This document shows, in pieces, positions 4,452 through 55,348 of a stretch of DNA of 64,000 bases. The position numbers and the translations under genes were made by a program. This DNA comes from Thermodesulfobacteriota bacterium (GTDB lineage Bacteria > Desulfobacterota > Desulfomonilia > Desulfomonilales > Desulfomonilaceae), in the NCBI GenBank assembly GCA_040753915.1, contig JBFMDN010000012.1, forward strand, positions 1-64,000. The letters run 5' to 3'. The notes beneath the pieces are model-generated. The model searched no databases and was not told the origin of the DNA. It was given only the letters and a program-made list of their open reading frames with translations. The stretch's first letter is position 1. Each line of letters opens with the position of its first letter.

Positions 4452-4495
4452 GATCCTAGACCTCTCTCCTATCTCCCTCATCGGAGGTTCAAACC

Positions 4496-14483: not shown

Positions 14484-14523
14484 CACAGGCTCTGGTTGAG
14501 AATTCGTGTTACGGAGGAGATCA

Positions 14524-32330: not shown

Positions 32331-32512
32331 AGATACCTCCTCTAATACAGTTCGCAGCGCTTCACAACGCCGCTATTCATTGTTTGGTTCACGAGAGAGT
32401 GATCTTCATACGTGGGCGAGAAAACTTAGGTATTTTAATCTCTCCCGGCAAACATAGCAAGGGAAAAAGCCCCGTGCCGCCACGCGCAAGCCTCAGCACG
32501 GTGGGAGTAGGT

Positions 32513-35326: not shown

Positions 35327-35360
35327 ACACTTCGCTCCTAATCCGCGTAATCTCTCGCTA

Positions 35361-36953: not shown

Positions 36954-36973
36954 GAGAGGAATTCCTCCATGTC

Positions 36974-38914: not shown

Positions 38915-38966
38915 TAGTGCGGGACATCATGCTCGATTTGGCGCCGGTCCATGCCCGCGGTTTTGC

Positions 38967-39269
38967 TTACCACTTCATGAGACTCATTTCGTTCACGTTC
39001 GCAGTGCCCTTCTCCCGGAAGATGGCTACCGCTATTGCCAGTCCCACAGCAACCTCAGCGGCGGCCACCACCATGGTGAAGAGAACAAACACCTGTCCTT
39101 CCATGGAATTCAGAGTGTGGGAAAACGCCACGAAGCTCAGGTTAACCGCGTTGAGCATCAGCTCGAGGGACATGAGGATGACGATCACATTTCTGCGGAT
39201 CATCACTCCGATCATCCCTATAGTAAACAGCAGAGCAGACAAGAATAGGTAGTGTTCCAACGTGATCAT
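38967..39269 (-). CDS. nuoK: NADH-quinone oxidoreductase subunit K
   Basis: 100-aa three-TM protein with '[10 protein letters not shown]...[10 protein letters not shown]'. Confidence 0.85.
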
Positions 39270-39307
39270 TTGTGTTCATCCCATGTCAAATTGGAGAGAG
39301 AGGGACG

Positions 39308-39844
39308 CTATCCCTTCGTCGCTCCTGTGGACCTCTTCCGCGCAAGGATCACCGCGCCCACTATCGCCGCCAGCAAGAGTATGGAGACGATTTCAAAGGG
39401 GAGCAGGTATGTCGTGAACAGCTCCCTGGCCAATATCTCCGTATTGCTCATCTCGGGCACCGCCGCGGGAGCGCCTATCTGAGGCGCCCTCGGAATCACC
39501 GCTGTCAGGACAGGCCCGATCATCGTCAGCACACCCAGTGCCAGGACTGCCCCTATCCACCAGCGTGCCGACTTCGCGTCCGCCTGGAAGATCGTGGGAC
39601 CAAGATTCAGAAGCATGATCACGAACAGGAAGAGGACCATGACGGCTCCAGCGTACACCACGAGCTGTACCATGGCCACAAATTCGGCCCTCAGCATGAG
39701 AAACAGGCCCGCGAGGCTGACCATTGCAAGAATCATGAAGACGACGTTATGAACGGGTCTGCGGAGAAAAACCACACAAAGTGCCGAGACCGTTACGATT
39801 ACGGCCAGTACATAAAACAGCACCGCTTCCATCAGGGTATACAT
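39308..39844 (-). CDS. nuoJ: NADH-quinone oxidoreductase subunit J
   Basis: Size and TM pattern fit NuoJ. The gene order also fits. Confidence 0.8.
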   Translation of the reverse strand: MYTLMEAVLFYVLAVIVTVSALCVVFLRRPVHNVVFMILAMVSLAGLFLMLRAEFVAMVQLVVYAGAVMVLFLFVIMLLNLGPTIFQADAKSARWWIGAVLALGVLTMIGPVLTAVIPRAPQIGAPAAVPEMSNTEILARELFTTYLLPFEIVSILLLAAIVGAVILARKRSTGATKG

Positions 39845-40189
39845 ACCTCCATCGACGGACTGACCTGTCCCGCTGCCACCGCTGTCCCTCAGGGCCGCTC
39901 GACGGCCCAGTCCGCATCGACTCCACTATGGGCGACGCTCGACTCGGATCAACCAGAGAGGAGTGGAAGATCTCCTGCACCCGTCCGTCAGAGTCATTCC
40001 CAAATGTGTTTACCTACTCACCTACTTACGTGTTTACCTATTCATCCGTGTGCGTAGCGGTCCCTAAACTCCACAGCACCGCGGGCTACGGCATCATCCT
40101 TGGCCGTCAGTTCGGCCTGCCATGATCCTTTGTCACTCGACCACGCACCTGGAGATCCCTCGTCACGTTGCGACGCGTGTGCCTTTCTT

Positions 40190-40627
40190 TCAGCTTGCCA
40201 CCTTCTTCTTGGCCTCGTACCTCGGCTGCGGAGGCTCCAGAAGCTGCTCTTTGTCGAGAATCAACCCCTCCCGGCTGTAGGCCGAGATCTCATATTCCGT
40301 CGTCATCTCGATGGCTTCTTTCGGGCACACCTCCACGCAATAGCCGCAAAAGATGCATCGTCCCAGGTCGATCACGTATTTCTCCGGATACTTCCTGTTG
40401 TCCGGCTCAGCCGCGCCCTCGATGTAGATGCACTGCGCCGGGCACACGGTGGCACAGAGCATGCAAGCGACACACTTGATCTTTCCCGACGCATGCTTCG
40501 TCAGAACATGCCGGCCCCTCCATCGGGGTGCAACGTCCCACTTCTCCTCAGGATATCGGAGAGTAACTTTGGGGCTGAAGAAGTAATCCAGTGTCAGCTT
40601 GAGTCCCTGAAGAAGGGGTTTGATCAT
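40190..40627 (-). CDS. nuoI: NADH-quinone oxidoreductase subunit I (2x[4Fe-4S])
   Basis: 'CVACMLCATVCPAQCI' and 'CIFCGYCVEVCP' are present. Confidence 0.85.
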   Translation of the reverse strand: MIKPLLQGLKLTLDYFFSPKVTLRYPEEKWDVAPRWRGRHVLTKHASGKIKCVACMLCATVCPAQCIYIEGAAEPDNRKYPEKYVIDLGRCIFCGYCVEVCPKEAIEMTTEYEISAYSREGLILDKEQLLEPPQPRYEAKKKVAS

Positions 40628-40694
40628 TTTTCTCCGTCCTCACGTATGGTTGGGCACACTGTCCGTGCACAAGTAGGATCCATTGCCGATGTCC

Positions 40695-41735
40695 TCATCC
40701 TACGTGGCGCTGAAGCCACAGGGTGTAGAGGAAGGCAGTGAGCATAACGTTGAACAGTCCGGCCGGTACCAGCACCTTCCAGCCCAAGCTCATGACCCTG
40801 TCATACCGCAATCTCGGGTACGTCCCACGAATCCATACGAACACGAACACCCAGAAAAACGTCTTGAGCAGGAACCAGACCACCGGGGGAAGCACGGGTC
40901 CCTGCCATCCCCCAAAGTAAAGGGTCGTAATAAGGGAGCTCATGAACAGCAGATGCGCGTACTCTCCCAGGTAAAACAGCCCGAATTTCATTGAGCTATA
41001 TTCTGTCTGGTAGCCAGCCACCAGCTCGTTTTCGCACTCCAACAAATCGAAAGGCGTGCGCCCTATGTCCGCCGATCCCGCTATAAGCAGCAGGAGGAAC
41101 CCAAGAGGTTGTCGGAAAATATACCATTTCCAAATTGAATCCTGGGACTGCACGATCTCGACAAGGCTCAGAGTCCCTGCCAGCATAAGCACCCCTATGA
41201 CGGCGAGGGCCAGCCCGAGCTCATAGCTTATCATCTGTGCCCCGGCTCGTATCGCTCCCAGAAGCGAATACTTGTTGTTGGAGGACCAACCGCCAAGTAT
41301 GACACCGTATGCACCCAGGGACGTTACGGCAAAGATGAACAGGATGCCCACGTTCATGTCTGAGATCACGCCCTGGTTCAGGCCGTACCGGTCTGCGGCC
41401 GGTCCCAGGATCCTATCCAGACCCAATCCCTGTGCGAACGGTATCACTGCAAACGGTGTCAAAGCGCATGTCACGACAATGAGGGGAGCGAGCACGTAAA
41501 TGAACTTATTCGCTCCAGAGACCGTTATCTCCTCCTTCAGCAAGAGCTTTGCCCCGTCTGCAAGCGGCTGAAGCAGCCCCCACGGCCCGACGCGGTTCGG
41601 TCCCAGCCTCACCTGGATCCACCCAAGGACTTTGCGCTCCAGCAGGGTGAGGTATGCGACAAAGGTCAATACTGCCCCGATGAAGATCAGGATCTTAATA
41701 ATCAGGAATATCACTGCCGGAATCGTGCCTTCCAT
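40695..41735 (-). CDS. nuoH: NADH-quinone oxidoreductase subunit H
   Basis: NuoH/ND1-like. The start was trimmed to the ATG at 41735 to avoid overlap with nuoG. Confidence 0.8.
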   Translation of the reverse strand: MEGTIPAVIFLIIKILIFIGAVLTFVAYLTLLERKVLGWIQVRLGPNRVGPWGLLQPLADGAKLLLKEEITVSGANKFIYVLAPLIVVTCALTPFAVIPFAQGLGLDRILGPAADRYGLNQGVISDMNVGILFIFAVTSLGAYGVILGGWSSNNKYSLLGAIRAGAQMISYELGLALAVIGVLMLAGTLSLVEIVQSQDSIWKWYIFRQPLGFLLLLIAGSADIGRTPFDLLECENELVAGYQTEYSSMKFGLFYLGEYAHLLFMSSLITTLYFGGWQGPVLPPVVWFLLKTFFWVFVFVWIRGTYPRLRYDRVMSLGWKVLVPAGLFNVMLTAFLYTLWLQRHVG

Positions 41736-41755
41736 ACGTAAAACCTCGCCGGTAT

Positions 41756-44398
41756 CTAAACCTTTTCCACCTTCACATTCACAGCGGACTCTCCCCACCG
41801 GAGGAAAGCGTTGAGTTTCAGCTCACCGAAATGATAGGGAACAATGACCGTTCCCGGTAAGGCGCGGCGGGAAGCCTTCACTGTGAGCTCAGTCGACGCG
41901 CCATTGGCGTTGCTGATCCGTATGGCCTGTCCATCCTTCAGACCGAGCAATTTTAGATCCTTGGGGCTCATCTCCGCGGTAGCCTCTGAGACCACCTCCA
42001 TCAGGGAAGCGCTACGACGAGACATCGACCCCGAATGAAACTTCAATATCCCGGGGATCAGGAACAGAGGAAGTGCTTCCGGGGCGGGGCTCATGATGGC
42101 TGGAGCCGGAACGAGCCGGGCTTTGCCGGACGGAAAGCCCCCTTCGTAGAGCATCTCCTTGCCGGAATCCTCGGAATCGACGCAGGGCCACGTGATGCCC
42201 TGGCTTCCTAGCCTCTGGTACGACACACCTCCATACACGTCCACTAGACTCGCAATCTCTTCCATTACTCTCTCGGGACCGGAATAGGTGAGAGAGAGAT
42301 TCCCCATCAGAGTAGCAAGCGCAATAAAGATCTCCAGGTCGCTTTTTGCACGACGTTCGTCTGTGGTCGGAGCCAGCCGCTGGATCCGCCGGTCCGCAGT
42401 CGTATATGTACCGGATTTCCCGGCGAATGAGCTGACAGGGAGCACGGCATGGGCCAATTGCGCTGTGGGAGTGAGGAACATGTCCTGAACGACGAGAAAT
42501 TCAAGCTTGCACAGCGCTCGCTCTACCTGGCCCCGGTCAGGATACGTTTCCACGGGGTTCTCGCCCACCACGTACAGGCCTTTTATCTCCCCCTGTTCCG
42601 CTTTTTCGAGAATTTCCCTCGCACCCAGTCCTGGATTTTCGGGGATCGCCGCGTCCCATGCCTGAGAGAATTTGGCCCTGGCCGCTTCGTCTGCTATGGG
42701 GTAAAGGCCCGGGAGGAACTCCGGGGTCAGTCCCATATCTACTGCCCCCTGAGAATTTGCTTTCTCGCCGAACACGTGGAGGCCACAAGCTTCCTTCCCT
42801 ATCCTCCCCGTGAAAAGCGCCAAATTCGCTGCAGCCTGGGCTAGCTCTACGTTGTGAGCCACACGATTCATCCCTGTCGTGAGAATCAACGTGGCGTGCT
42901 CAGCATCGGCATATGCCTGCGCGGCAGCTCTGATTACCTCCGGATCATTGTTCGTAAGACTTGCCACCCGCTCCACGGTGTAATCGCTCAGCGAAGCCAC
43001 TAGATCGTCAAAACCCTCGACCTTCAAATCTAGGGCTTTCTTGTCGAACCGCCCCTCATCAACGATCCATTTGAGCATGGCATATGCAATCAGATGCTCG
43101 TACCCCGGAGGAACCTGCAGGAACGTGCTGCCCATGCGTTCCGCGAGCTTGGTCCGTACAGAGTCCACGACTATGATTTTGGCCCGTTTGCGACCATGAG
43201 CGAGGATGACCTCATTCTTCGCCACCGGGTGGGTTTCGTTGAGGTCCGCTCCGAAGAGAACAATGACGTCGGCTTTCCTGATCTCCCTGATGGAATTCGC
43301 GCCTGCTGCGTATCCGAGCATAGGACGCAGAGCATCGGTCAAGCTTCGATAGGAATAGCCGCCCGCGTGATCCAGGTTCGGGGATTCGAGCACGGTTCGC
43401 ACGAAGCGATTGAGCACGTAGGCTTCCTCATTGGTAAGCCGCGCCGAGCCCAGGGCAGCGAGCTTGGAGCCCCCGTGCTCCGTCCTCAGCGCCTTGAGGC
43501 GCCCGGCTACGAATTGGAGCGCCTCCGCCCAATCCGTCTCGACCAGCGAGCCGTCCTTTCGGATCAACGGCTTTGTCAGGCGAGTATCCGAGTATATGTA
43601 CGGCCATCCGTATCGCCCTTTTACGCACAGGTTCCCCTCATTAGGGCTATCCGCCGGCGATCCCACGTACACAATTTTGCTGTTTTTCTCACCCACTGTG
43701 AGCCTGCACCCCAGGCTGCAAAAGGAACAGGTGGTATCAGTCCTTCTCAATTCGAACAAGCGGCCGGTTCCCACGAGCCATTTCGAGCATATGGCCCCCA
43801 CGGGACAGATCGACGCGCATTGACCGCACAGCTCGCATGCGAGGGGGCGCTGGAAATCGGTCGAGACCTCCGTGAACATTCCTCTGTTCACGAAGCTCAG
43901 CTCCCGCTCTCCCTGCACCTCGTCGCAAATGCGCACGCACATGCCACACTTTATGCAGAGGTTCATGTTGAAGCGGATAAAGTGCGAATCGTTGTCCACA
44001 TTAAAATATCGACTCTCCTTGGAAAACGGCAGATCCCCGATCTTGTATTCGTACACGAGGTTTTGGAGCTGGCAATTCCCTGCAGCGTCACAACTCGGGC
44101 ACAGGAGAGGATGCGACCTGAGCAGCAGCATGAGCTGCACTCTTCGGATCTCGACGAGCTTGGGAGTATTGGTGGCCACTTCCATGCCGTCCCGTGCTGG
44201 ATTGAAGCAGGCCGGCATAGTGCGAGTACGACCTTTGGCCGTGACTTCCACGATGCACAGGCGGCATGAGCCATACGGAATGAGACGCTTATCGTGGCAC
44301 AAAGTGGGAATCCGTATCCCGGCTTTTTGAGCAGCCTCCAGGATAGTGGCTCCACGTTCGACAGAGACTTCAACACCGTCGATGGTCAAAGTAACCAT
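41756..44398 (-). CDS. nuoG: NADH-quinone oxidoreductase subunit G (2Fe-2S, 4Fe-4S and molybdopterin-like domain)
   Basis: The N-terminus has 'CHDKRLIPYGSCRLC' and the 4Fe-4S motifs 'CIKCGMCVRICDE' and 'CELCGQCASICPVG'. A large MopB-like C-terminal part follows. Confidence 0.85.
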   Translation of the reverse strand: MVTLTIDGVEVSVERGATILEAAQKAGIRIPTLCHDKRLIPYGSCRLCIVEVTAKGRTRTMPACFNPARDGMEVATNTPKLVEIRRVQLMLLLRSHPLLCPSCDAAGNCQLQNLVYEYKIGDLPFSKESRYFNVDNDSHFIRFNMNLCIKCGMCVRICDEVQGERELSFVNRGMFTEVSTDFQRPLACELCGQCASICPVGAICSKWLVGTGRLFELRRTDTTCSFCSLGCRLTVGEKNSKIVYVGSPADSPNEGNLCVKGRYGWPYIYSDTRLTKPLIRKDGSLVETDWAEALQFVAGRLKALRTEHGGSKLAALGSARLTNEEAYVLNRFVRTVLESPNLDHAGGYSYRSLTDALRPMLGYAAGANSIREIRKADVIVLFGADLNETHPVAKNEVILAHGRKRAKIIVVDSVRTKLAERMGSTFLQVPPGYEHLIAYAMLKWIVDEGRFDKKALDLKVEGFDDLVASLSDYTVERVASLTNNDPEVIRAAAQAYADAEHATLILTTGMNRVAHNVELAQAAANLALFTGRIGKEACGLHVFGEKANSQGAVDMGLTPEFLPGLYPIADEAARAKFSQAWDAAIPENPGLGAREILEKAEQGEIKGLYVVGENPVETYPDRGQVERALCKLEFLVVQDMFLTPTAQLAHAVLPVSSFAGKSGTYTTADRRIQRLAPTTDERRAKSDLEIFIALATLMGNLSLTYSGPERVMEEIASLVDVYGGVSYQRLGSQGITWPCVDSEDSGKEMLYEGGFPSGKARLVPAPAIMSPAPEALPLFLIPGILKFHSGSMSRRSASLMEVVSEATAEMSPKDLKLLGLKDGQAIRISNANGASTELTVKASRRALPGTVIVPYHFGELKLNAFLRWGESAVNVKVEKV

Positions 44399-44485
44399 AG
44401 AAATTCACTCGCATTCGAAGATTAGGTATCTGCTTTCAGTGCCGTTCGTCAACCGCCGGCAAACGGACGGCAGTGCAAGCCGAGA

Positions 44486-46282
44486 TTATCTGATCGCTCC
44501 GAACCTACAGTTCATGATGCACGTGCGGCACCGGGTACACTTGTTGAGGTCGATTCTGGCCACCTGCTTCTTTTCCCACGTGATAGCGCCCGAGGGACAG
44601 TTGCGGTAGCACATACCACACATCTTACACTTTTCCTCTATAACCACGAAGTCTATGAGATCAGGACACACGAGCGCAGGGCAATGCTTGTCACGTATAT
44701 GAGCGTCGTACTCATGCCTGAAATGGCGAATCGTCGAGAGAACAGGGTTGGCTGCGCTCTTTCCCAGTCCACAATGGGAGGTGTTGTTAATATGGTGTCC
44801 CAGCCAGATAAGAAACTCTACGTCACCTTCCTGGCCTCGCCCTTCGCAAATGTCCGTAAGCTTGTCGTGCATGACCTTGAGGCCTTCCCGGCACGGGGTG
44901 CATTTGCCACAGGATTCGTCGACGCAAAAGCCTGTAAAGAATCGTGCTGTGTCGACCATGCACGTGGAATCGTCCATTACCACGACACCGCCGGATCCCA
45001 TCATGGCGCCGGCATCGTAGAGGGACTCATAATCGATCTCTACGTCCTCACTTCCGGCGGGAATACACCCTCCTGAGGGGCCCCCGATCTGAGCTGCCTT
45101 GAATTTCCTCTTCTTAGGGATCCCACCGCCGATGTCGAAAATCAGCGTCTTGAGCGTCGTGCCCATGGGGACTTCCACGAGCCCCACGTTGGTCACGGCA
45201 CCGGTAAGGGCGAACACCTTGGTCCCTTTGCTCCCCTCGGTTCCTATGGAAGCGAACCATTCCCCTCCGTTGAGTATGATAGGATTGATGTTGGCAAAGG
45301 TCTCCACGTTGTTAAGATTCGTGGGCTGGTTCCACAGACCGGCCTCAGCGCTCCGCGGAGGCTTGATTCGCGGCATGCCGCGCTTGCCTTCTATAGAGTA
45401 CATCAGAGCAGTGGATTCCCCGCAGACGAACGCTCCCGCTCCTGGAGCGATGCCGATATCGAAATCAAACCCGCTTCCCAGAATGTTCTTGCCCAACAGG
45501 CCGTATTCCCGGGCATCGTTGATCGCCTTTTCGAGCCTCTGGATGGCGAGGGGATACTCAGCGCGCACATAGATGTACCCTTGGTTGGCGCCAATGGCGT
45601 AACCGGATATGGCCATTCCCTCCAACACCGAGTGCGGATCCCCTTCCATGACCGATCTATCCATGAACGCGCCTGGGTCGCCTTCGTCACCATTGCATAT
45701 GGTGTACTTGGGAAAGCTGTTGTACCGTCGACATTCCTCCCACTTGAGCCCCGTGGGAAAACCGCCGCCGCCACGGCCTCTCAGGCCGGATTTCTTCACT
45801 TCCTCGATGACCTGCTCGGGAGTCATCTCCAGAAGCGCCTTGGCCAACGCGGCGTACGCGTCCCGGGCAATGGCCTCGTCTATGCTCTCGGCATCAATGA
45901 GCCCGCGGTTACGCAGCACGATGAGTCTCTGGAGCCCGAAGAATCCGATGTCCTTCATCAGAGGCACTTCAGCCTTGGCTCCTGCCTCTTTGAACAAGAG
46001 CTGCTCTACTATTCTGCCCTTGAGTACGTGCTCCTCCACGATCAACGGGGCATGTTCGGGCTTGACCTGATTGTAGAAGACGCCGTCGGGATACACGACG
46101 ACCAGAGGCCCCATGGCGCAGAAACCATTGCACCCGGTCATCACGATCTCGACCTCATCCGAGAGATGCCTCTTGGCCAGCTCGCGCTCCAGCGCCTCCT
46201 TGACGGCGAGAGATCCGCTCGCTATGCATCCTGTGCCGGCGCACATCATGAATTGCATTCTATAGCCGGGACTAACGCTCAT
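44486..46282 (-). CDS. nuoF: NuoF/HndC-like NADH dehydrogenase flavoprotein (N-terminal 2Fe-2S thioredoxin-like, C-terminal 2x[4Fe-4S])
   Basis: 'GLRGRGGGGFPTGLKWE' is the FMN/NADH site. The N-terminus has 'CAGTGCIASG...CNGFCAMGP'. The C-terminus has 'CKMCGMCYRNCP...CTRCRTCIMNC'. It is 598 aa, against about 440 aa for a plain NuoF. Confidence 0.85.
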   Translation of the reverse strand: MSVSPGYRMQFMMCAGTGCIASGSLAVKEALERELAKRHLSDEVEIVMTGCNGFCAMGPLVVVYPDGVFYNQVKPEHAPLIVEEHVLKGRIVEQLLFKEAGAKAEVPLMKDIGFFGLQRLIVLRNRGLIDAESIDEAIARDAYAALAKALLEMTPEQVIEEVKKSGLRGRGGGGFPTGLKWEECRRYNSFPKYTICNGDEGDPGAFMDRSVMEGDPHSVLEGMAISGYAIGANQGYIYVRAEYPLAIQRLEKAINDAREYGLLGKNILGSGFDFDIGIAPGAGAFVCGESTALMYSIEGKRGMPRIKPPRSAEAGLWNQPTNLNNVETFANINPIILNGGEWFASIGTEGSKGTKVFALTGAVTNVGLVEVPMGTTLKTLIFDIGGGIPKKRKFKAAQIGGPSGGCIPAGSEDVEIDYESLYDAGAMMGSGGVVVMDDSTCMVDTARFFTGFCVDESCGKCTPCREGLKVMHDKLTDICEGRGQEGDVEFLIWLGHHINNTSHCGLGKSAANPVLSTIRHFRHEYDAHIRDKHCPALVCPDLIDFVVIEEKCKMCGMCYRNCPSGAITWEKKQVARIDLNKCTRCRTCIMNCRFGAIR

Positions 46283-46355
46283 CCTTATCTCTCCTCCCGG
46301 TCCACGAACGTTTTGTGGTCCCGGGCTCTAGCTCTTGCTCCCGCGGACTTCCCGC

Positions 46356-46742
46356 TCAGGTTGCCACGGTCTCGCTTCCCATTGCGAGAGCATATTCCTG
46401 CACGGGCTTACCGTCCATCACATGCTCCGCAAAAATCCGTAAGGCCTTTTCCTTGGTAAGCAACACGTATTTCACGGGGGCCTGATCCGCCACTTCGACG
46501 GTCATCATGGGCTCCTTTGCGCACAAACCGGCGCATCCGGAATTCGTCAACATGACATCGGACGCATCGCGCCGTGCAATCTCCTCGCGCATCACGCTCA
46601 TAATGTCTCGCGCTCCGGCTGCGATGCCACACGTGCCCATATGTACCGTGATCTTGGCTCGGAACTCGCCTTCGCGAAGGATCATTCTCTTTCGCTCACG
46701 CTCTTTGATCTTCTTCAAATCGTGTACCGTGATCTTTGGCAC
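46356..46742 (-). CDS. Thioredoxin-like [2Fe-2S] ferredoxin (HndB-like)
   Basis: 'ITVHMGTCGIAAGA...SGCAGLCAKEP' is present. GTG start with an AGGAGG RBS. Confidence 0.65.
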   Translation of the reverse strand: MPKITVHDLKKIKERERKRMILREGEFRAKITVHMGTCGIAAGARDIMSVMREEIARRDASDVMLTNSGCAGLCAKEPMMTVEVADQAPVKYVLLTKEKALRIFAEHVMDGKPVQEYALAMGSETVAT

Positions 46743-46815
46743 GATTCTTCCTCCTGGAACATACGTTTGCTCTACTCTGGGGGTGTCTCCCCGGTAGGAT
46801 CCTCCGTGCCCAAGA

Positions 46816-47331
46816 TTACTGATAACCGTCGAGGATCTTAATCGTGTCCTTTGGCTGCACGTTTCCGTGGGTGTCTTCTCCCACGAGAAAGACCGGCGCC
46901 AGACCACACGCTCCCAGACATCTCACGGCTTCCAGAGTGAACCTTCCATCTGCGCTGGTTTCGCCGACCTCGATACCGACTTCCCTGCGGATCACATCAA
47001 GTATCTCCTTGGACCCCTTCACGTAGCACGCCGTCCCCAGGCAGAGTCGGATCACGTGCCGTCCTCGCGGCTCAATAGTGAAGAAGGAATAGAAGGTGAC
47101 TACCCCGTAAATGTGCGATGCCGGGATTGCAAGGCCGGAAGCAAGGTATCGCTGGACCTCCATGGGAACGTACCCGAACAGATCCTGCGCCTCCTTGAGG
47201 GCGGGAATGAGATAGCCTGGATTACCAGCATACTTGTCAATTATGGGATCCAATTTCTCGAGCTCTTCCCATTCCAGAGCTGGTACTGCCGACTTGGCCT
47301 TCTTCTTGAGTATTGCGTCTCTTTCTTCCAC
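46816..47331 (-). CDS. nuoE: NADH-quinone oxidoreductase subunit E (HndA-like 2Fe-2S)
   Basis: 'CLGTACYVKG...CLGACGLAPV' is present. Confidence 0.85.
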   Translation of the reverse strand: MEERDAILKKKAKSAVPALEWEELEKLDPIIDKYAGNPGYLIPALKEAQDLFGYVPMEVQRYLASGLAIPASHIYGVVTFYSFFTIEPRGRHVIRLCLGTACYVKGSKEILDVIRREVGIEVGETSADGRFTLEAVRCLGACGLAPVFLVGEDTHGNVQPKDTIKILDGYQ

Positions 47332-47349
47332 TTTGCAGTTTCTCCCTTA

Positions 47350-47901
47350 TCAGGTGAGGCCTTTTGCCACCTCGTCGATACCTTCTTTCACATTGTCCCG
47401 AATTAGCTGGAGAATGCCGGGATTATTCAGCGGAAGCTCTTCCAGATCGGCTCTGAGCTCCCTCGTGTCCAGCACATACTCCCGGTTGTTTCTCCTGTGC
47501 GTGTACACGAAATCGATCTCCGGGTTACCTTCGATCAGCGTCACCATGGTCTCGGCCATGTCACCCATGGGCTTCCGGTCTATGTGCGAGTGGCGCATAG
47601 ACGCAGTAACCGTCGTCCCCACTCCGAGGGCAGACTCAACCGAAAGATCGCCGTCCGCCTCTTGCGCCGACTGCTGGAACAGGGACAATCCGAGCCCCAC
47701 TTTCCGAGTCGTCCGTGTCGTGGTGAACGGATCCAGTACTCGGCTGACAAAGTCCGGATCCATTCCGCGTCCGTTATCACGAACGGTTATCACAAGCTTA
47801 TCCTCCGCTACATCTTCTTCCACTGTTATCTCCACGAGGCTTGCTCCCGCAGTGATGCAGTTCTCAGCTACATCCAGAATGTGCAGCGAAAGATCCTGCA
47901 T
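47350..47901 (-). CDS. Stand-alone GHKL histidine-kinase-like ATPase
   Basis: HATPase_c motifs 'VRDNGRGMD' and 'GLGLSL' are present. It is 183 aa with no HisKA domain. Confidence 0.7.
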   Translation of the reverse strand: MQDLSLHILDVAENCITAGASLVEITVEEDVAEDKLVITVRDNGRGMDPDFVSRVLDPFTTTRTTRKVGLGLSLFQQSAQEADGDLSVESALGVGTTVTASMRHSHIDRKPMGDMAETMVTLIEGNPEIDFVYTHRRNNREYVLDTRELRADLEELPLNNPGILQLIRDNVKEGIDEVAKGLT

Positions 47902-47931
47902 ACGGCGTCCTATGCGTGTCCCCGAACGTGG

Positions 47932-48711
47932 TCACGACACGCATCCCCCCTCGATAAACCTCCCATCTCTGCCCGCCAGCGCCTTGGTCAATTCCTCGAA
48001 CGTAGGTGCAGTCATACGTGCTGTCGTTGAAACGATCCCTATATCCTCCGGATAGTGTGCGTCCGAGGACGTGATCAGCACATGATTGCGCGCCTGCGGA
48101 TAGGCAGCCCTCACTGCTTCGTAGGTCGAGCGTTTGGATACTTCCAGAGCGTCCAGCTTCAGGCCTTCGGGAATGAACCCGAGCTGCCCGAATATGCCGA
48201 AGCCGGAGCGATCCACATGGGCCGCGACCGCGACCCCGCCACATCCGTGAATCAGCGCAACCACTTTCTCTGTGCTCAACGTGGTAGCACCTATCAAGAG
48301 CCTCTGGTCAAGGTCTACCACTTCGTCGAATTCGTTTGCCACCACCTGATAACCGAACACTTCTTCGTCATTTTGCCCGATCAGGCGGGCATATACTTCT
48401 TCCTGAGCAGCAGCCGCAGCCTCATCTGACGGGAACAACCCCACGAGGTGAACTTCCTCCGAGGACGTGATTTCCATGCCAGGCACCACCAGCAGCCTCG
48501 TGCCTGTAGCTGCTCGCCTGGTGGCGGCGGTATTCCTCGCAGAATTGTGGTCGCAAATGGCAATCACGTCCAGTCCCCGTTTCACCGCGATTTCGACAAT
48601 GGCCCTGGGGGTCATATCTGCGATCTCGGTGCACGGAGACAATACCGTGTGTATGTGAAGATCGAGTCTGTACGTTCGAAGATCGTCCAGTTCGCCTCTC
48701 GTGCCGTTTCA
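47932..48711 (-). CDS. PHP-domain phosphoesterase (start codon anomalous)
   Basis: The PHP motifs 'DLHIHT' and 'IAICDHNS' are present. The first lies upstream of the only in-frame ATG/GTG/TTG, which is a TTG at 48642. An in-frame stop at about 48720 leaves only a CTG (with a GAGAGG RBS) as a possible start that includes the motif. Confidence 0.55.
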
Positions 48712-48796
48712 GCGACGCTCCCGGCGCTCCCGGGTAGATTTCGGCGAGGTTCCGTGTTTCGACCCCAAACCGGAGGCTGAGATGCGCCGCGGGGTA

Positions 48797-49141
48797 TTAC
48801 CCCCGTCTCCGAATCCCCATCTCGTAGAGCTTCCCGGCGACTTCGTAGGTTTTCAGAGGGGTCACCATGATGGGAACGCTCTGATCTTCGGCCTTTTCCA
48901 GGGTATCCGGATCGGGCTCCCTGCCGCCAACAATGAGGATTCCTGCGAGATTGTTGAGAAATGCCACTGCAACGATATTCTGGTGCAACTGGAGGGTGAT
49001 CCAGAGATCTCCCTCCGTTGCTCCGGCAATAACGTCGCTGAGCAGGTCGCTCGCGTAGCCTCCCGTCACTTCACGATCCAGCTCCGAATTTCCGGCCCGC
49101 ACCTCAAGATTCAAGGCCTTCACCACTTCAGCGAGTGTCAT
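48797..49141 (-). CDS. DRTGG-domain protein
   Basis: 'DREVTGGYASDLLSDV...ILIVGGREPD' is present. The ATG at 49141 has a GAGGAG RBS 20 bp after the nuoD stop. Confidence 0.65.
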   Translation of the reverse strand: MTLAEVVKALNLEVRAGNSELDREVTGGYASDLLSDVIAGATEGDLWITLQLHQNIVAVAFLNNLAGILIVGGREPDPDTLEKAEDQSVPIMVTPLKTYEVAGKLYEMGIRRRG

Positions 49142-49161
49142 CAACGCTCCTCGACACTGAC

Positions 49162-50361
49162 CTAACGGTCGACTTCCGCCAAGACGATATCCACACTGGA
49201 CAGTATGGCTATCAAGTCGGCGAATAGGTGTCCCTTCGACATCAGGGCAAGGGTTTCGAGGTTCACGAAGGCGGGGGCTCTCCATTTGAGCCGCAAGGGC
49301 TTGGGTCCGCCGTCGCTGATAATATAGCAGCCCAGCTCGCCTCGAGGGGACTCGATACATCCGTAGTATTCGCACACCGGTGGTTTGAGGCCTTCGACGA
49401 CCAGCATGAAATGATGGATGAGCGCTTCCATTCGCTCGTAGATCTCTTCCTGCGGAGGGAATATGAGTCCTGGCATGCGTGCCCTGATCGGTCCTCCGGG
49501 GAGCTTAGCAAGGGCCTGCTTGAGAATGCGGTTGCTCTCCCTCATCTCCTGGACTCGGATCAGGTATCTGGAGTAGACGTCGCAGCCCCATTGCACGGGT
49601 ATCGAGAAATCATACTGCTCGTATCCGCTATAGGGCTGGCTCTTTCGCACATCCCATGCCAATCCCGAGGCTCGAATCATGGGTCCGCTGGCGCCGAGCG
49701 CTATGGCGTCTTCCAACGGAAGGATGCCGACACCTTTCGTCCTGTCTACATATATGGCATTCTTGGTTAGGAGAGTTTCGTACTCATCTACCCGTCGCTC
49801 GAAATGGTTGGTGAACGCTGTCAGACGTTCGATAAATCCCTCTTCCAGGTCGCGATTGAGGCCTCCGATCCTCAAGTAATTGGGCATCAGTCGTCCACCT
49901 GCGGTGAGCTCGAACAAATTCATAATTTCTTCTCGCTCACGGAGGCCGTAAAAGAGAGGAGTCATGGCCCCCACGTCATGGGCGTGGGTGCCCAACCAGA
50001 AGAGGTGACTGAAAATCCGGCTCAATTCCGCCATCATCACGCGAATGACTTGAGCTCGTTCCGGAACCTCGGCGTCGATAATCTTCTCAACGGTCAAGCA
50101 GAAGACGAGCGAATTGCTGGAAGCCCCCATGTAGTCACACCGCTCGGCTAGCGGAATGATCTGGTGATAGTGCTTGTTCTCACACGCCTTTTCATATCCT
50201 CGGTGGAGATACCCGAGGTACGGCACAACGTTCAATACGGTCTCGCCTTCCAGTTCCACAACCGCGCGGAAGACCCCGTGGGTGCTCGGGTGATGAGGTC
50301 CCAGGTTCAATTCGAACGTCTCGGATATCCGGTCCAGCGTTCGGGGTTGTGCTTCTCTCAT
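49162..50361 (-). CDS. nuoD: NADH-quinone oxidoreductase subunit D
   Basis: 49-kDa subunit homology along the full length. Confidence 0.9.
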   Translation of the reverse strand: MREAQPRTLDRISETFELNLGPHHPSTHGVFRAVVELEGETVLNVVPYLGYLHRGYEKACENKHYHQIIPLAERCDYMGASSNSLVFCLTVEKIIDAEVPERAQVIRVMMAELSRIFSHLFWLGTHAHDVGAMTPLFYGLREREEIMNLFELTAGGRLMPNYLRIGGLNRDLEEGFIERLTAFTNHFERRVDEYETLLTKNAIYVDRTKGVGILPLEDAIALGASGPMIRASGLAWDVRKSQPYSGYEQYDFSIPVQWGCDVYSRYLIRVQEMRESNRILKQALAKLPGGPIRARMPGLIFPPQEEIYERMEALIHHFMLVVEGLKPPVCEYYGCIESPRGELGCYIISDGGPKPLRLKWRAPAFVNLETLALMSKGHLFADLIAILSSVDIVLAEVDR

Positions 50362-50882
50362 GAGCTCAATACCTCGGTCTTACCCCCTTTGGGAAGTTCC
50401 GGCGTGTCTTCGTCAGTTCCTTCAATCGGAAAGTCCTTGCGCAACGGATGACAATCCCAGTGATCCGGCAGAAGCAGCTTCCTGGGATCCGGATGCCCGG
50501 AGAAAACCATCCCGTACATTTCAGCGGTCTCCCGTTCGTGCCAGTTCGCTGTGGGCCAGATATCTGTGACCGAATCCACAGTGGGCATACCCTTTTCGGG
50601 CTCTTCCAGCATGGTTTTCACCCGAAACCGATGATTATGTTTCAGGGAATAGAGCTGGTACACGACTTCGAATCTCGGCTTGTCCGGATATCGGTCCACT
50701 CCTCCAACGAACGAGAGAAAACTGAAGTCCAGGTCCGGATCGTCTCTCAGGAAGAGACAGATTTCGCGGATCTTTTCCTTGACAACCGTGACGGTGATCT
50801 GATCACGAAACGGCACAGTACCTACGATGGATTCCTGTCCAAACCGTGAGATGAGCTTATCTCTAATCGCTTCCTGATTCAT
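50358..50882 (-). CDS. nuoC: NADH-quinone oxidoreductase subunit C (not fused to D)
   Basis: 30-kDa subunit motifs are present. It overlaps nuoD by 4 nt. Confidence 0.85.
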
Positions 50883-51388
50883 ACGCGGGTTCCCCTAATC
50901 CGATGCACGCGAGGATTACGGATAGACTGCTCTTTCATCACTTTGGCGTGGAGTTGAAGAATTCCGTCCAGCAGAGCCTCCGGTCTGGGGGGACAGCCGG
51001 GAATGTACACGTCAACGGGGAGGTAGCGATCAATTCCCTGAACCACAGCGTAATTTTTGTAAATACCTCCGGTGCAGGCACACGCGCCCATGGCAATCAC
51101 CCACTTGGGCTCCGTCATCTGCTCGTAGATCCTGAGAACTGCCGGCAGCATTTTCTTGGAGCACGTTCCGGACACGATCATAAGGTCTGCCTGCCGGGGG
51201 GACGGCCGTGCCACTTCCATACCGAATCGGGACAAATCATATCTGCTGACAAAGGTTGCTATCATCTCAAGAGCGCAGCACGCCAGTCCGAAGCCGAGAG
51301 GCCACATGGAGGATTTCCGCGCCCAGTTCACGAACCACTCCAGGTTCGTAACGTGAACGGTGTCATTCAAGTGACGTTCTATTCCCAT
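50879..51388 (-). CDS. nuoB: NADH-quinone oxidoreductase subunit B
   Basis: 'GLACCALEM...CPPRPEALL' is present. Confidence 0.85.
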
Positions 51389-51735
51389 TCGAGGGCACCT
51401 TTTTTCCAAACGTAGACGAGACCCGCCAGGAGAACGAGCACGAATATGAGCATTTCTATAAACCCAAACACCATAAGCCTGTCATAAATCTTCGCCCAGG
51501 GAAACATGAAGATGATTTCTATGTCGAAGATGACAAAAAGCATACCTATGATGAAAAATCTGACGGGAAAACGCCTTCGTGCGTTACCTATTGGATCCAT
51601 GCCGCACTCGTACGGCATGAGCTTCACCGGGGTAGGATCTTTTGTTGAAAGAAGTGAGGAGAGAACTATGATGGCCACGCCTATAAACGCTGAGACCAGA
51701 AGTATCACAAGGGCTGGTAGGTAGCTATCGATCAT
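51379..51735 (-). CDS. nuoA: NADH-quinone oxidoreductase subunit A
   Basis: 118-aa three-TM protein with '[10 protein letters not shown]'. Confidence 0.85.
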
Positions 51736-51908
51736 CCTGCTTCTCCGGCTCGATCAGTGGGCGACAGAATGGCGCCTTGCCTGACTGGCCTGAACTGCCT
51801 CAATGATGCGGAGGGATTTCAAACTGGTGCTTGGTTCGCAAACCGTTTAATTTTGAGTCATCCTGGGTCCCTTGTCAAGAGTTTTTTGCCTCGCAGCGAG
51901 GGGTGTTT

Positions 51909-52790
51909 TTAGCCCACTGGCACAGAGGCTCTATCCCGGAATAGAAATTCGATATCAAGGCGTGTTCCCGCTCCAGGGCCCGACAACAGCTTCATCATAT
52001 CCGAGCAGCGCTTAATGTTCGCAAGGCCCATCCCTGCCCCGAACCCCATCTCACGTATCCACGGCGGAGCAGTAGAGTACCCTGGCTGGAGCACCTTAGT
52101 GAGATCCTCGATACCGGGACCATGATCCACTGCGGACACTTTCAGCCGATCCTTCCGCACGTCCACGGTAATAATTCCCCCTACATCCGTATGAATCACC
52201 AGGTTCATTTCCGCTTCGTACACCGCCACCGACACCCGCCGAACGATCGGCGGGGCCACACCGAGGCGCTGGAGAGATTTCTTGATCTGGCTCGAGGCCT
52301 TGCCCGCGTTGTCGAAGTCCCTTTCGCTCACAGTGAACCGCAGGATCACGCTCGTGTCGTCCGACTCGATATCCTCGAAAATGTGTCGGGCTCGGTAAGA
52401 CTGGAGCTTTTCCGCTTCCTTCTTCTGAAAGCTGACATCCATTTCTTTGAGCAATGCCCGAATGATCGTGCCAGTCGTCACGATCCCGACAAGCTTGCCA
52501 CCCTGATCGACCACCGGAAGTCTGCCGAAGCCCTCGCGGTCGAGATTGCTCACCGCCTCGATCACGGACGCATCCTTGAGGACGGATTTTACCTGAGTCG
52601 TCATGTGTTGACTCAAGGGCTCGTGCAACTGTCCCCGTACCGTGACGTCGATCACGTCGGTCATGCTTATGATCCCCACCATCCTGTCGCCTTCCATGAC
52701 AGGGACACCGGAGATTCTTTTGGCCCGCATGAGCTCTTTGACCTCATTCACGGTCATGGAAGGAGTCACGGTGATTACCTTGCGGGCCAT
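51909..52790 (-). CDS. CBS-pair plus GHKL ATPase protein
   Basis: A tandem CBS region ('VITVTPSMTVNEV...ISGVPVM', 'LPVVDQGGKLVGIV') is followed by HATPase_c ('DHGPGIED', 'GAGMGL'). The start is uncertain, at about 52790. Confidence 0.65.
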   Translation of the reverse strand: MARKVITVTPSMTVNEVKELMRAKRISGVPVMEGDRMVGIISMTDVIDVTVRGQLHEPLSQHMTTQVKSVLKDASVIEAVSNLDREGFGRLPVVDQGGKLVGIVTTGTIIRALLKEMDVSFQKKEAEKLQSYRARHIFEDIESDDTSVILRFTVSERDFDNAGKASSQIKKSLQRLGVAPPIVRRVSVAVYEAEMNLVIHTDVGGIITVDVRKDRLKVSAVDHGPGIEDLTKVLQPGYSTAPPWIREMGFGAGMGLANIKRCSDMMKLLSGPGAGTRLDIEFLFRDRASVPVG

Positions 52791-52855
52791 GACATTTTCC
52801 ACTCTCGTGGTATAGATCAGCTCCTGGACTTTCGTTATGTTTTGAGTTTCGATGA

Positions 52856-53227
52856 TCACCAGGAACCTCTCTCGATTTTCACGGGGCCTCTCCCGGGAAG
52901 GCCTGCCTGGTACAACCGTCCGCACGCTTCGTACATTGTGTAACCCACTCGAATGAGCGTAATGCCGGATTCTCGTGCCAATTCGATTGTTTCCGGAGGC
53001 GGCGTCTTATCGCGGACAAACACGACGACCTCGATTCCGGCCATTTCCGCTGTACGCACTACCTGAGGATTGGTCAGGCCTGTCATGAGTACCATGCCCT
53101 CTGCGCCGAAGGCGAGAACGTCGCTCATGAGATCCGCGGCTCCCCCAATGGGAAAATCGGTTTCATGATCGTGGCTATCCACAATGATATGCCCGTCCAG
53201 GACCGTGACTAACTCCCGGATTTTCAT
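52856..53227 (-). CDS. DRTGG-domain protein (second copy)
   Basis: 'HDHETDFPIGGAADLMSDV...GMVLMTGLTNPQ' is present. Confidence 0.6.
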   Translation of the reverse strand: MKIRELVTVLDGHIIVDSHDHETDFPIGGAADLMSDVLAFGAEGMVLMTGLTNPQVVRTAEMAGIEVVVFVRDKTPPPETIELARESGITLIRVGYTMYEACGRLYQAGLPGRGPVKIERGSW

Positions 53228-53534
53228 CTGCGCTCCAGGTCGAACTCACAATGTCGAAAATCACACTTGATCATTGCGTCGTTTGCTTGTCAAGCACAAC
53301 TGGCCCTGCAGCACTGTTTCATAGTTCTAATTCTCACATACTGTGAAACTTCCTGCTTTGCAAGGGGCCTTGGTGATGTGCTATCTGGATCGTGGCTCAC
53401 GCGGAAGAGCCGGAAGCGTCATCGATCATCACGGGGGTATCGAACGTCAGCCGTTGCCCCGTACGTCAGTGAGGTGAGCGTGTATACGGGAGATAGGCCG
53501 AACCCTGGATTGGCACAGTTTCTTGCCGATCACA

Positions 53535-55348
53535 TGGCAGAAAGGCACGACGAGAGTGATGATGACTATGCTGTCTCTGCCTTTTGCCGGCCGATCGAGA
53601 CCACAAAGAACTCCCACATCTTTCGGATGCACGGCTATCATCTTGGCAAGAAACCTTACGATGCGGTACAGGCGTACATCAAACACTACACGCGGGAAGG
53701 GGATGTGGTGCTCGATCCTTTTTGCGGCTCGGGCAGCACAGCTCTCGGGGCCCTGGTGCTCGGTCGAAAGGCCGTGGCCATTGACGTCTCTCCAGCCGCC
53801 ACGTTCATCACCCGGTTTTATGTTTCCGCTTGCGATCCTTGCGATTTCAAGGCGCGCTTCGACACGATGTGTGCTCGGGTGGAAAGGGAAATGTCGCACC
53901 TCTATGGGACTGTATGCCACCGGTGCGGAACAGGCGCGACCATCCACTACGTGGTCTATTCCAACTACTACGTCTGTCCCGGCTGCGGCCGGTCGGTAAG
54001 TCTCTTTGAGGCATCCCAAGATCGACGACGGTGTTGCCCCCAATGCCTGAAATGGGACGGGAGAATCGTGCGGATCGGCCCGCCCGCCGAAGCGGTTGCA
54101 AACGGACCGGTAGCCGTGAATTTCACTTGTCACGGAACCTGTTCGCCCAAAAGAATGACCCGGTCGATCACCGGCCCGTACGAGGAGCAAGAAGCGTTTC
54201 GATCCATTGATCTCCAGACTCTTGCCCGTCTCGAATCCGAACCGATCCCGTACCCTCATCCCGACCGCTTCATGATGAACGTCTCGGATCCGGAAGCTCC
54301 GTGGGGAGACGAATGGCGCCCGAGTCGCAACTTCCGTACGGTGCGGGACCTTTTTACCTATCGCAATTTTCGAGCCCTCGCAGCGCTCATGGACGCTGCG
54401 GGCAGCGACGAGGATTTACGTGCGGTCATCACGTCCGGAATGCTTGCAGCCAGTAGGAAGGCGCAACACCTTTCGGGCGGTGGAGGCTACATCCCGGGGA
54501 ACTGGGCTCTGCCACCCGTTTCTAAGCAGCGCAATGTCTTGGAATCCCTGAGAACCATTTTCGCCCGTACCCTGCAGGCCAAGCGAGCCCTGGCGAGCCT
54601 ACTCAAGAGCCAGGACGTGTGCATATCGACCCAGTCCGCTGCAGCACTGCACGGCATTCCAGACTGCTCGGTCGACTATATCTTCACGGATCCGCCCTAC
54701 GGCGGATCGATCCAGTACGGGGAGCTCAACTTCATTTGGGAAGCATGGCTCGGTTTCAACACCAGGTGGCACGAGGAAGAAATCGTTGTGAACCGGTCTC
54801 GGGGTCGCACCATTGAGGACTGGGCGGCCATGATGCGAGCCGCTTTGTCGGAATGCTTCCGCGTTCTCCGGCCTGGCAGGTGGCTTTCTCTGTGCTGGCA
54901 CGACGGCTCCATGGGCACATGGCCGGTTATTCACCAGATCCTTTCGGAAGTAGGCTTTGTGACGGACTCGTCTGGAACCGCGCAGACCATTGACACGGGA
55001 GCAAACACGTACAACCAGCGAGTGTGGGACAAGGCCGTGAAACGGGATCTGGTGATCAACGTTCGGAAGCGGCGGAGCCACGAATCAGCGACAACGTCCC
55101 CGGCAGATGCCACTCCGCAAAACAGCTTTCGCGACTTGGCCCGCGTGGTCATCTCCTCCTTTCTCTCCGCCAATCCCGGTGCGACCAAGGATCGGGTGTA
55201 CGATCATCTTGTGGGATTCATGTTCCAAAAGGGGAGATTGGAGCAGCATAACTTTGACAAGTTGCTGGAGAGTGTGGCGGAACGGGTTCGGGACGGGAGT
55301 CGCGGCTGGGTATTGAAATCCGGAGTCCGAGAGAATCCGGAGTCCTAA
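53535..55348 (+). CDS. Orphan DNA methyltransferase (N6A/N4C type; motif I then Zn-ribbon insert then DPPY)
   Basis: 'VVLDPFCGSGSTALGA' is the FxGxG/AdoMet motif. 'CHRCG...CPGCG...CCPQC' is a zinc-ribbon-like insert. 'IFTDPPYGGSIQY' is catalytic motif IV. The ORF is open from 53267, but the first approximately 270 nt look like a promoter, so I chose the ATG at 53535. Confidence 0.75.

Follow-up and report, generated by a model that had tools for sequence, protein, structure and literature searches.

A nuo gene cluster of Desulfomonilaceae with a Bfu-type NADH module and a co-travelling set of nucleotide-binding and phosphoesterase genes

What kind of NADH module belongs to a bacterial complex I whose subunit genes are interspersed with other genes, and what might these other genes do? 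The question is raised by a contig of a Thermodesulfobacteriota bacterium of the Desulfomonilaceae (GCA_040753915.1, JBFMDN010000012.1), of which we analyzed the first 64,000 nucleotides (hereafter the window). An unbroken run of 20 genes, all on the minus strand (33881-53227; open reading frame listing, Pfam, and NCBIfam), includes the genes of all 14 core subunits of complex I, NuoA to NuoN, identified with Pfam in one cluster where insertions separate nuoA to nuoD from nuoE, nuoF, nuoG, and nuoH to nuoN. The gene order given in an earlier note on this DNA was recovered by the open reading frame listing, by Pfam, and by independent public gene calls, which provided the same list for identical contigs and for a 68%-identical relative. 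The note counted three accessory genes, placed between nuoD and nuoE and encoding DRTGG, PHP, and GHKL proteins; there are actually five, since a second DRTGG gene and a gene for a CBS-CBS-HATPase protein lie upstream of nuoA. We have high confidence that the locus encodes a Nuo-Bfu complex I with an input module made of BfuC, BfuB, and a catalytically dead FdhA-like subunit. The wider reading that we favor, with a probability of roughly 0.6, is that this module and its passengers were inserted as a unit and that the passengers form a nucleotide-responsive control module of the BfuBC core.

The type of the module can be read from NuoF, whose sequence was compared with those of the PDB. It scored 806 bits with the HydB of the NiFe enzyme of A. 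mobile, 783 bits with that of A. woodii, and 741 bits with that of T. kivui, against 392 bits with Nqo1 of Thermus and around 350 bits with NuoF of Aquifex and Escherichia coli. The alignment with the A. mobile HydB covers 591 residues without a gap. The two proteins are 60% identical, compared with 59% for the A. woodii HydB and 47% for the canonical NuoF of a Nitrospirota locus (L067). All 24 cysteines that align with the two solved HydB sequences of A. mobile and A. woodii are kept, including four of the N-terminal [2Fe-2S] cluster, four of the N3-type cluster, a CPxxxC pair, and eight of the C-terminal 2x[4Fe-4S] domain. The cysteines that hold the five clusters of BfuB, and those that hold the cluster of BfuC, are accordingly conserved. 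Four domains define BfuB according to Schut et al. 2022 (IPR011538, IPR019554, IPR019575, and IPR017896), and NuoF has the Pfam equivalents of them all (Complex1_51K, SLBB, NADH_4Fe-4S, and two Fer4), the SLBB match (24.8 bits) being slightly below its 27-bit cutoff. The protein falls short of the NCBIfam cutoff for NuoF (TIGR01959; 487.6 vs 558.65). NuoE behaves in the same way, with HydC of T. kivui and A. mobile as best PDB matches (158 bits) and complex I NuoE at about 98 bits. In neighbor-joining trees NuoF did not cluster with ordinary N-modules: it was placed deep among Bfu-type sequences, and canonical NuoF formed a long outgroup branch. Because the PDB bit scores, the identities, the 24 cysteines, and the tree all agree, we assign the N-module to the Hnd/Hyd (Bfu) type and not to that of ordinary complex I, as the earlier note had proposed.

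Between nuoE and nuoF lies the gene of a small ferredoxin that resembles HydD and HndB. Its PDB matches were restricted to the N-terminal 2Fe-2S domains of BfuB proteins, and it is 32% identical to residues 7-94 of the NuoF of the window. Three cysteines and one histidine are invariant in 67 homologs, and the histidine aligns with the first cysteine ligand of the NuoF N-terminal domain, so that the protein may hold a 3Cys-1His [2Fe-2S] site. Such sites are common in sensor or labile clusters.

The earlier note took the rest of the operon to be canonical. This did not hold, because NuoG is closer to the alpha subunits of formate dehydrogenases than to NuoG proteins. In the PDB it was matched best by FdsA of R. 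capsulatus (478 bits, full length), followed by the M. extorquens enzyme (457 bits), while the best true NuoG, that of M. smegmatis, reached 214 bits. In the alignment with FdsA the catalytic Cys-His pair is replaced by Ser-Tyr and the active-site arginine by glycine. Among 16 NuoG homologs from related loci, the position of the cysteine is occupied by S, A, T, or G, that of the histidine by tyrosine in 14, and the arginine is found in none. The protein lies below the NCBIfam cutoffs both for Fdh-alpha (TIGR01591; 508 vs 666) and for NuoG (TIGR01973; 362.8 vs 470). We considered an active formate dehydrogenase in the place of NuoG and rejected it, since the catalytic residues are absent. The Pfam domains are Fer2_4, NADH-G_4Fe-4S_3, Fer4_Nqo3 (with two CxxCxxCxxxC motifs), and Molybdop_Fe4S4, and thus the protein has the 2Fe-2S and 4Fe-4S ferredoxin-type domains (at least one of each) that characterize BfuA. 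The motifs correspond to a 2Fe-2S cluster, a His-ligated 4Fe-4S cluster, two ferredoxin-type 4Fe-4S clusters, and the entrance cluster of the molybdopterin domain, which by its ligand pattern is the five-cluster arrangement of a BfuA "wire."

The remaining subunits, NuoA to NuoD and NuoH to NuoN, are ordinary complex I subunits, and NuoD passes the NCBIfam equivalog model (TIGR01962; 532 bits vs a cutoff of 459). The locus can be set against four known systems. It shares with canonical complex I (E. coli and T. thermophilus) the usual order of nuoA-D and nuoH-N and differs from it by the two extra domains of NuoF and by a NuoG with a two-cluster ferredoxin domain and a formate dehydrogenase-like C-terminal region. 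With the bifurcating hydrogenases HydABC, NiFe-HydABCSL, and HndABCD (PDB 7t2r, 7q4v, 8a6t, and 7p5h) it has in common a NuoF that matches HydB over its full length, a NuoE closest to HydC, and the hydD/hndB and "hisK" genes found in A. woodii-type and A. mobile loci; here, however, no hydrogenase domain or subunit is present, the place of BfuA is taken by a dead FdhA-like protein, and the unit is partnered with the quinone module of complex I. NuoG has the domain order and Fe-S motifs of the FdsABG enzymes (R. capsulatus, 6tg9; M. extorquens, 7vw6), from which it is separated by the substituted catalytic residues and the missed Fdh-alpha cutoff. The closest counterpart is a prediction by Schut et al. 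2022 (PMC9304861). These authors defined the Bfu family by its conserved BfuBC core and predicted a 14-subunit "Nuo-Bfu," encoded in an A-N cluster (51 sequences, BfuB clades 38 and 39, with Geobacter sulfurreducens as example), in which the joint oxidation of NADH and reduced ferredoxin would drive menaquinone reduction and proton pumping. The window agrees with it in the BfuC/B/A genes in the middle of a nuoA-N cluster, in the four BfuB domains, and in a host from the former delta-"Proteobacteria," and departs from it by having 20 genes, with HydD and the five accessory genes added. According to the legend of Figure 1 of the same paper, the A. mobile holoenzyme does not include the products of the hisK and hydD genes of its operon; the text of the paper mentions neither PHP nor kinases. 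In the searchable literature we found the term Nuo-Bfu in this paper only, and nothing relevant on DRTGG or PHP proteins in connection with hydrogenases, complex I, or HydABC. The mosaic is therefore an already published prediction, whereas the embedded passenger set appears to be undescribed. What is new is that, throughout a bacterial family, the module is accompanied by five nucleotide-binding or phosphoesterase genes and by the gene of a small ferredoxin.

To follow the arrangement in other genomes, one genome per species was scanned with an alignment of the GHKL protein, which gave 80 loci, and the 20 proteins of the window were mapped onto them by tblastn. The identical 20-gene order was found in about 55 loci labeled Desulfomonilaceae, Desulfomonile, or "Syntrophaceae" metagenome-assembled genomes, one of them (L004) being 98% identical to the window. 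In related loci the median gaps are short (21 nt for nuoD-DRTGG, 25 nt for GHKL-nuoE, and 18 nt for nuoG-nuoH) and nuoA, nuoB, nuoC, and nuoD overlap, as they do by 4-10 nt in the window. Recurrence in some 55 species-level genomes with such gaps shows that the gene arrangement is not a chance juxtaposition. Conservation of the accessory proteins equals that of core subunits, with median identities of 74% for DRTGG, 66% for PHP, and 65% for GHKL, against 62% for NuoC and 58% for NuoJ. The upstream DRTGG gene is kept 5' of nuoA in 44 related loci. Other lineages, Desulfarculaceae and further Thermodesulfobacteriota, place the set differently: one group (L065, L072, L078, and L081) has the complete set of five between nuoD and nuoE, and Desulfarculaceae (L071 and L082) have four of the five there.

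The accessory genes also occur away from nuo genes, next to NuoEF-type modules of other enzymes, as the earlier note had suspected. In four Nitrospirota loci (L058, L059, L070, and L076) the order E-HydD-F-G is followed by the five accessory genes, amid unrelated neighbors and far from the nuo membrane genes. A locus of Anaerolineaceae (L083) has all five with a [NiFe] large subunit, and a clostridial locus (L061) has hydC-GHKL-hydD-hydB-hydA with the H-cluster motifs of an [FeFe] hydrogenase. Overall, the GHKL gene adjoins BfuC, HydD, or BfuB in 71 of the 80 loci, and six of the remaining nine end at contig ends. Since the same set stands beside Bfu cores without nuo genes, it is to the Bfu core, and not to Nuo, that we assign it.

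The bootstrapped neighbor-joining analysis of BfuB recovered the nuo-embedded sequences of Desulfomonilaceae and Desulfarculaceae as one clade (100/100), the L065 group as another (100/100), and all sequences with a non-catalytic G subunit together (96/100), apart from hydrogenase HydB. Accordingly, the closest relatives outside nuo clusters carry a non-catalytic FdhA-like subunit and not an [FeFe] hydrogenase. The monophyly of all nuo-embedded BfuB received only 7/100, so that the cassette may have entered the nuoD/nuoH slot once or twice. Capture of the NADH module along with its accessory genes, put forward in the earlier note, stands as the simplest reading because these genes accompany NuoEF-type modules elsewhere; it was not a recent event. 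Recent horizontal acquisition was rejected, as there is no anomaly of GC content or skew and the layout is family-wide, and the mosaic is an old trait of the whole family.

Among the accessory proteins, the GHKL protein has the N box and the G1, G2, and G3 motifs of a Bergerat-fold ATP-binding site, and these boxes are invariant. No HisKA/DHp domain was found by Pfam in its 183 residues, for which reason its identification as a classical histidine kinase was rejected. The AlphaFold2 model (predicted local distance difference test score [pLDDT] of 86) has MutL and GyrB as its nearest folds. At E<=1e-30 the family breaks down into 336 representative clusters, which with few exceptions are stand-alone proteins of about 180 amino acids. 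Four members (P0151, P0154, P0180, and P0255; 427-433 amino acids) are fusions that belong to separate 50%-identity clusters, with PHP at the N terminus and GHKL at the C terminus, which is the order of the adjacent genes of the window. The existence of these fusions suggests that PHP and GHKL work together physically, as one enzyme. In the PHP protein the metal-binding motifs DLHIHT, CDHNS, E..EEVH, H.DR, and SSDAH are conserved in 69 homologs. Its nearest solved relatives are 3e0f, RNase AM (7ug9), and a pAp phosphatase (2yb1), all weak matches, and its NCBIfam matches (TrlF/Ppl N-terminal PHP and nucleoside bisphosphate phosphatase) are all below cutoff; the protein resembles nucleotide phosphoesterases. 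The two DRTGG proteins are paralogs (27% identity over the full length, E = 2e-15). Their predicted fold (pLDDT of 96.5) matches the regulatory domain of CBS-pyrophosphatase and the N domain of HPr kinase/phosphatase; these domains are here separate proteins, and the CBS pair, which in the CBS-pyrophosphatase insert brackets DRTGG (CBS-DRTGG-CBS; PDB 3l31), is fused to HATPase_c_2. The CBS-HATPase combines a standard CBS pair with an SpoIIAB/RsbW-like HATPase_c_2 domain, whose N, G1, and G2 boxes are conserved in 47 homologs; its match to the NCBIfam spIIAB model (3e-11) is below cutoff.

The PHP gene has an unusual start. The motif DLHIHT lies upstream of the first ATG, GTG, or TTG (window 48646-48711, minus strand), and automatic and public gene calls consequently truncate the gene. 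Between the in-frame stop codon (48709-48711) and DLHIHT, the sole candidate is the CTG at 48690, preceded by AGAGG, and only if translation starts there does the first metal motif belong to the protein of the window. Outgroup lineages have an ATG seven codons ahead of DLHIHT. About 25 loci of the Desulfomonilaceae type (among L004-L060) are without a canonical start, and three of them (L008, L013, and L018) also lack CTG, ATT, ATC, and ATA; the Shine-Dalgarno-like AGAGG and the encoded peptide are conserved nonetheless. A programmed frameshift was rejected, since no consistent upstream open reading frame was present in either alternative frame across 25 loci.

How the parts could work together is best described by starting from the core. 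NuoE is BfuC, the long NuoF is BfuB, with the flavin mononucleotide site and all Fe-S ligand cysteines of solved HydB, and the FdhA-derived NuoG is BfuA, which would act only as an Fe-S wire. Following the proposal for Nuo-Bfu of Schut et al. 2022, NADH and reduced ferredoxin would be used together to reduce menaquinone with proton pumping, and the enzyme could also operate in reverse. Either mode would suit organisms with Wood-Ljungdahl enzymes. The six passengers (HydD/HndB, the two DRTGG proteins, CBS-CBS-HATPase, PHP, and GHKL) are probably not stable subunits and would form a control module, responsive to adenine nucleotides and possibly to redox state, that acts on the BfuBC core. In such a module the CBS pair and the DRTGG domains would sense nucleotides, as in CBS-pyrophosphatase, and the PHP-GHKL pair would be an ATP-driven effector that cleaves phosphoesters. 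The cassette of accessory genes and E-HydD-F-G would have entered the nuoD/nuoH slot as a unit in an ancestor of these Thermodesulfobacteriota lineages, and the leading pair of accessory genes would then have come to lie upstream of nuoA in the Desulfomonilaceae type. The data demonstrate the gene content, the homologies, the conserved cofactor ligands, the lost formate dehydrogenase active site, the synteny between lineages, and the PHP-GHKL fusions; from these we infer confurcation, a physical link between module and membrane arm, and a regulatory effect of any kind. A control role is favored by two loci in which the accessory set has no Bfu neighbors within the available sequence (L069:2232-5882 and L064:1-4233) and is flanked by two-component genes, encoding a HAMP-HisKA kinase with a receiver or a Cache kinase with an NtrC-type regulator. 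A more specific version is doubtful, namely that the five accessory proteins, perhaps with HydD and its 3Cys-1His site, are a dedicated system that reads adenine nucleotides and/or redox state, gates the ferredoxin branch, and switches complex I by energy charge between NADH-only, NADH-plus-ferredoxin, and reverse operation. Downstream of nuoN, the same strand (30567-33340) continues with genes for a GATase_5 (PurQ-like) protein and for a formate-tetrahydrofolate ligase; these neighbors fit one-carbon and Wood-Ljungdahl metabolism, a source of NADH and reduced ferredoxin.

Several points weigh against this reading. NADH can reduce menaquinone exergonically without the help of ferredoxin, and thermodynamics therefore does not demand confurcation. 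Given the stand-alone cassettes of Nitrospirota, the attachment to the membrane arm is deduced here from gene position only. About half of the PHP genes of the family have no canonical start codon, and this absence could mean very low expression or decay, even though the coding sequence is conserved. The modeled GHKL fold, being nearest to ATPases of the MutL/GyrB/Hsp90 type, would fit a chaperone or assembly role too. The promoter-like site before nuoA suggests that the two accessory genes upstream of it may have a transcript of their own. Because the 80 loci are those that matched the query best, their proportions are biased towards close relatives. Finally, we found no experiment on any Nuo-Bfu or accessory protein in the searchable literature.

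Among the other explanations, the one that survives best is a phosphorylation switch, in the line of the kinase and phosphatase roles that the earlier note gave to GHKL and PHP. GHKL and/or the CBS-HATPase would be kinases, PHP the opposing phosphatase, and the DRTGG proteins phospho-acceptors or antagonists, turning the Bfu core on and off in a manner similar to partner switching. The SpoIIAB/RsbW-type domain of the CBS-HATPase, the intact ATP-binding motifs, and a serine-containing motif, [SA]DL[LM]SDV, that is invariant in both DRTGG paralogs are all in its favor. The gene layout is suggestive as well: as in spoIIAA-spoIIAB and rsbV-rsbW, a small single-domain protein precedes an overlapping kinase-like gene, with a phosphoesterase gene nearby as in the SpoIIAA/SpoIIAB/SpoIIE and RsbV/RsbW/RsbU systems. 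To judge from the gene coordinates, the stop codon of the upstream DRTGG gene and the start codon of the CBS-HATPase gene should overlap as GTGA. The likeness ends with the layout, as the block encodes no STAS-domain antagonist, no PP2C phosphatase, and no sigma factor. The DRTGG fold is unlike that of STAS domains, and a STAS-like antagonist role was rejected for that reason. The small GHKL protein lacks a HisKA/DHp domain, and its model is nearer to MutL/GyrB than to either SpoIIAB or the CA domains of kinases. The closest characterized relatives of PHP hydrolyze nucleotides or RNA, not phosphoproteins. PHP-GHKL fusions neither fit nor exclude a pair of antagonistic enzymes. We consider the switch as a whole rather unlikely; a kinase/phosphatase scheme is possible chiefly for the CBS-HATPase, whereas the small GHKL, PHP, and DRTGG proteins failed every test for such roles that was applied to them.

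The accessory proteins could instead be assembly or maturation factors of the Bfu module, involved in cofactor insertion or docking, and not regulators. This would agree with the resemblance of the GHKL model to the clamp- and chaperone-type GHL ATPases (MutL, GyrB, and Hsp90), with the absence of hisK and hydD from the purified A. mobile holoenzyme (PMC9304861), and with the association of the set with Bfu cores whatever their catalytic partner. CBS pairs and DRTGG domains are, however, typical ligand-sensing regulatory modules, and some of the sets are found beside two-component signaling genes. It also counts against such a role that most of the genes are presumably missing from the nuo operon of Geobacter and from several operons for HydABC, and that the heterologous production of active HydABC has succeeded in their absence. 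We regard this explanation as unlikely. Two separate enzymes, an 11-subunit Nuo (A-D and H-N) using ferredoxin or another donor and a soluble BfuABC-like oxidoreductase with its own regulators, are improbable: the E-HydD-F-G and accessory cassette does occur alone in the four Nitrospirota loci, and in L067 (470-15763) canonical nuoA-F genes on one strand diverge from the five accessory genes and a Bfu-type E-HydD-F-G, so that both kinds of N-module stand side by side in one genome, but in two well-supported clades and three lineages the cassette fills exactly the nuoE-F-G slot between nuoD and nuoH, with short gaps and no other nuoEFG in the operon, and a soluble complex would have no third substrate because its G subunit has no catalytic site.

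Bfu-type enzymes are central to anaerobic energy metabolism. The passenger set stays with the BfuBC core in combination with [FeFe] hydrogenase, [NiFe] hydrogenase, a dead formate dehydrogenase-like subunit, and complex I alike, and thus provides concrete candidates for the regulation or assembly of bifurcating enzymes. Cultured strains of Desulfomonile exist, and metagenome-assembled genomes labeled Desulfomonile carry the arrangement, making this genus a possible test system for the joint intake of ferredoxin and NADH by complex I and for a switched input. There is also a warning for annotation: the curated models miss both NuoF and NuoG, and gene calling systematically gets the PHP gene wrong.

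The features of the block are given in Table 1. The sigma-70-like match sits in the 173-bp gap before nuoA. On the coding strand between nuoD and nuoH, the search for intrinsic terminators gave only weak intragenic matches and none that was credible in an intergenic gap. These predicted signals are compatible with a single nuoA-N transcript that includes the DRTGG, PHP, and GHKL genes. No sigma-54 promoter was matched 5' of nuoA or of the first DRTGG gene, the matches in the window lying elsewhere, and no RNA family of Rfam reached its gathering score in the window.

Table 1. Features of the 20-gene block, in the direction of transcription (window coordinates)
Feature	Position	Strand	Remarks
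DRTGG single-domain protein, upstream copy, 123 aa	52856..53227	-	Pfam DRTGG, 1.4e-5; opens the conserved block
CBS-CBS-HATPase_c_2 protein, 316 aa	51909..52859	-	Pfam CBS, 2e-27; HATPase_c_2, 1.3e-7
Sigma-70-like promoter match, TTGACA-17-CAAAAT	51850..51878	-	10/12 positions; consensus match only
nuoA	51379-51735	-	Pfam Oxidored_q4; membrane-arm subunit
nuoB	50879-51388	-	Pfam Oxidored_q6; quinone module
nuoC	50358-50882	-	Pfam Complex1_30kDa; quinone module
nuoD	49162-50361	-	Pfam Complex1_49kDa; quinone module
DRTGG single-domain protein, second copy, 114 aa	48797-49141	-	20 bp past nuoD
PHP-family metal-dependent phosphoesterase, ~252 aa if the start is CTG 48690	47932-48690	-	Pfam PHP and PHP_C, weak on the truncated open reading frame
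Small stand-alone GHKL ATPase, 183 aa	47350-47901	-	"hisK"/HydE of Bfu operons; HATPase_c, HATPase_c_3
nuoE, BfuC/HydC type, 171 aa	46816-47331	-	Pfam 2Fe-2S_thioredx, 5.6e-50
HndB/HydD-like thioredoxin-like ferredoxin, 128 aa	46356-46742	-	Paralog of the NuoF N-terminal domain
nuoF, BfuB/HydB type, 598 aa	44486-46282	-	N-terminal 2Fe-2S domain and C-terminal 2x[4Fe-4S] domain
nuoG/BfuA, FdhA-like, non-catalytic, 880 aa	41756-44398	-	Motifs for five Fe-S clusters
nuoH, I, J, K, L, M, N	33881-41735	-	Canonical membrane-arm subunits and NuoI; Pfam NADHdh, Fer4, Oxidored_q3, Oxidored_q2, Proton_antipo_M x3

Elsewhere in the window, a perfect sigma-54 promoter consensus, TGGCAC-N5-TTGCA (13461-13476, plus strand), precedes a pair of genes, one of which encodes an HdrD-like CCG/Fer4 protein (14506-15912). 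Two sigma-54 activators are encoded at 20914-23619 (minus strand) and 55997-57541 (plus strand), one with cyclic nucleotide (cNMP)-binding and Fer4_5 domains and the other with a GAF domain. Directly upstream of the block, a 693-amino-acid N6/N4 DNA methyltransferase is encoded on the plus strand (53267-55348), which is not conserved in locus L084; a DNA methylase and other restriction-modification-like genes are also found near the cassette of the Nitrospirota locus L059. Neither the sigma-54 activators nor the neighboring DNA methylase are conserved neighbors of the nuo block. Lastly, in this otherwise bacterial window a threonyl-tRNA synthetase (2379-4538, minus strand) has an editing domain of the kind named "archaea-specific" by Pfam (tRNA-Thr_ED, E = 5.5e-40).

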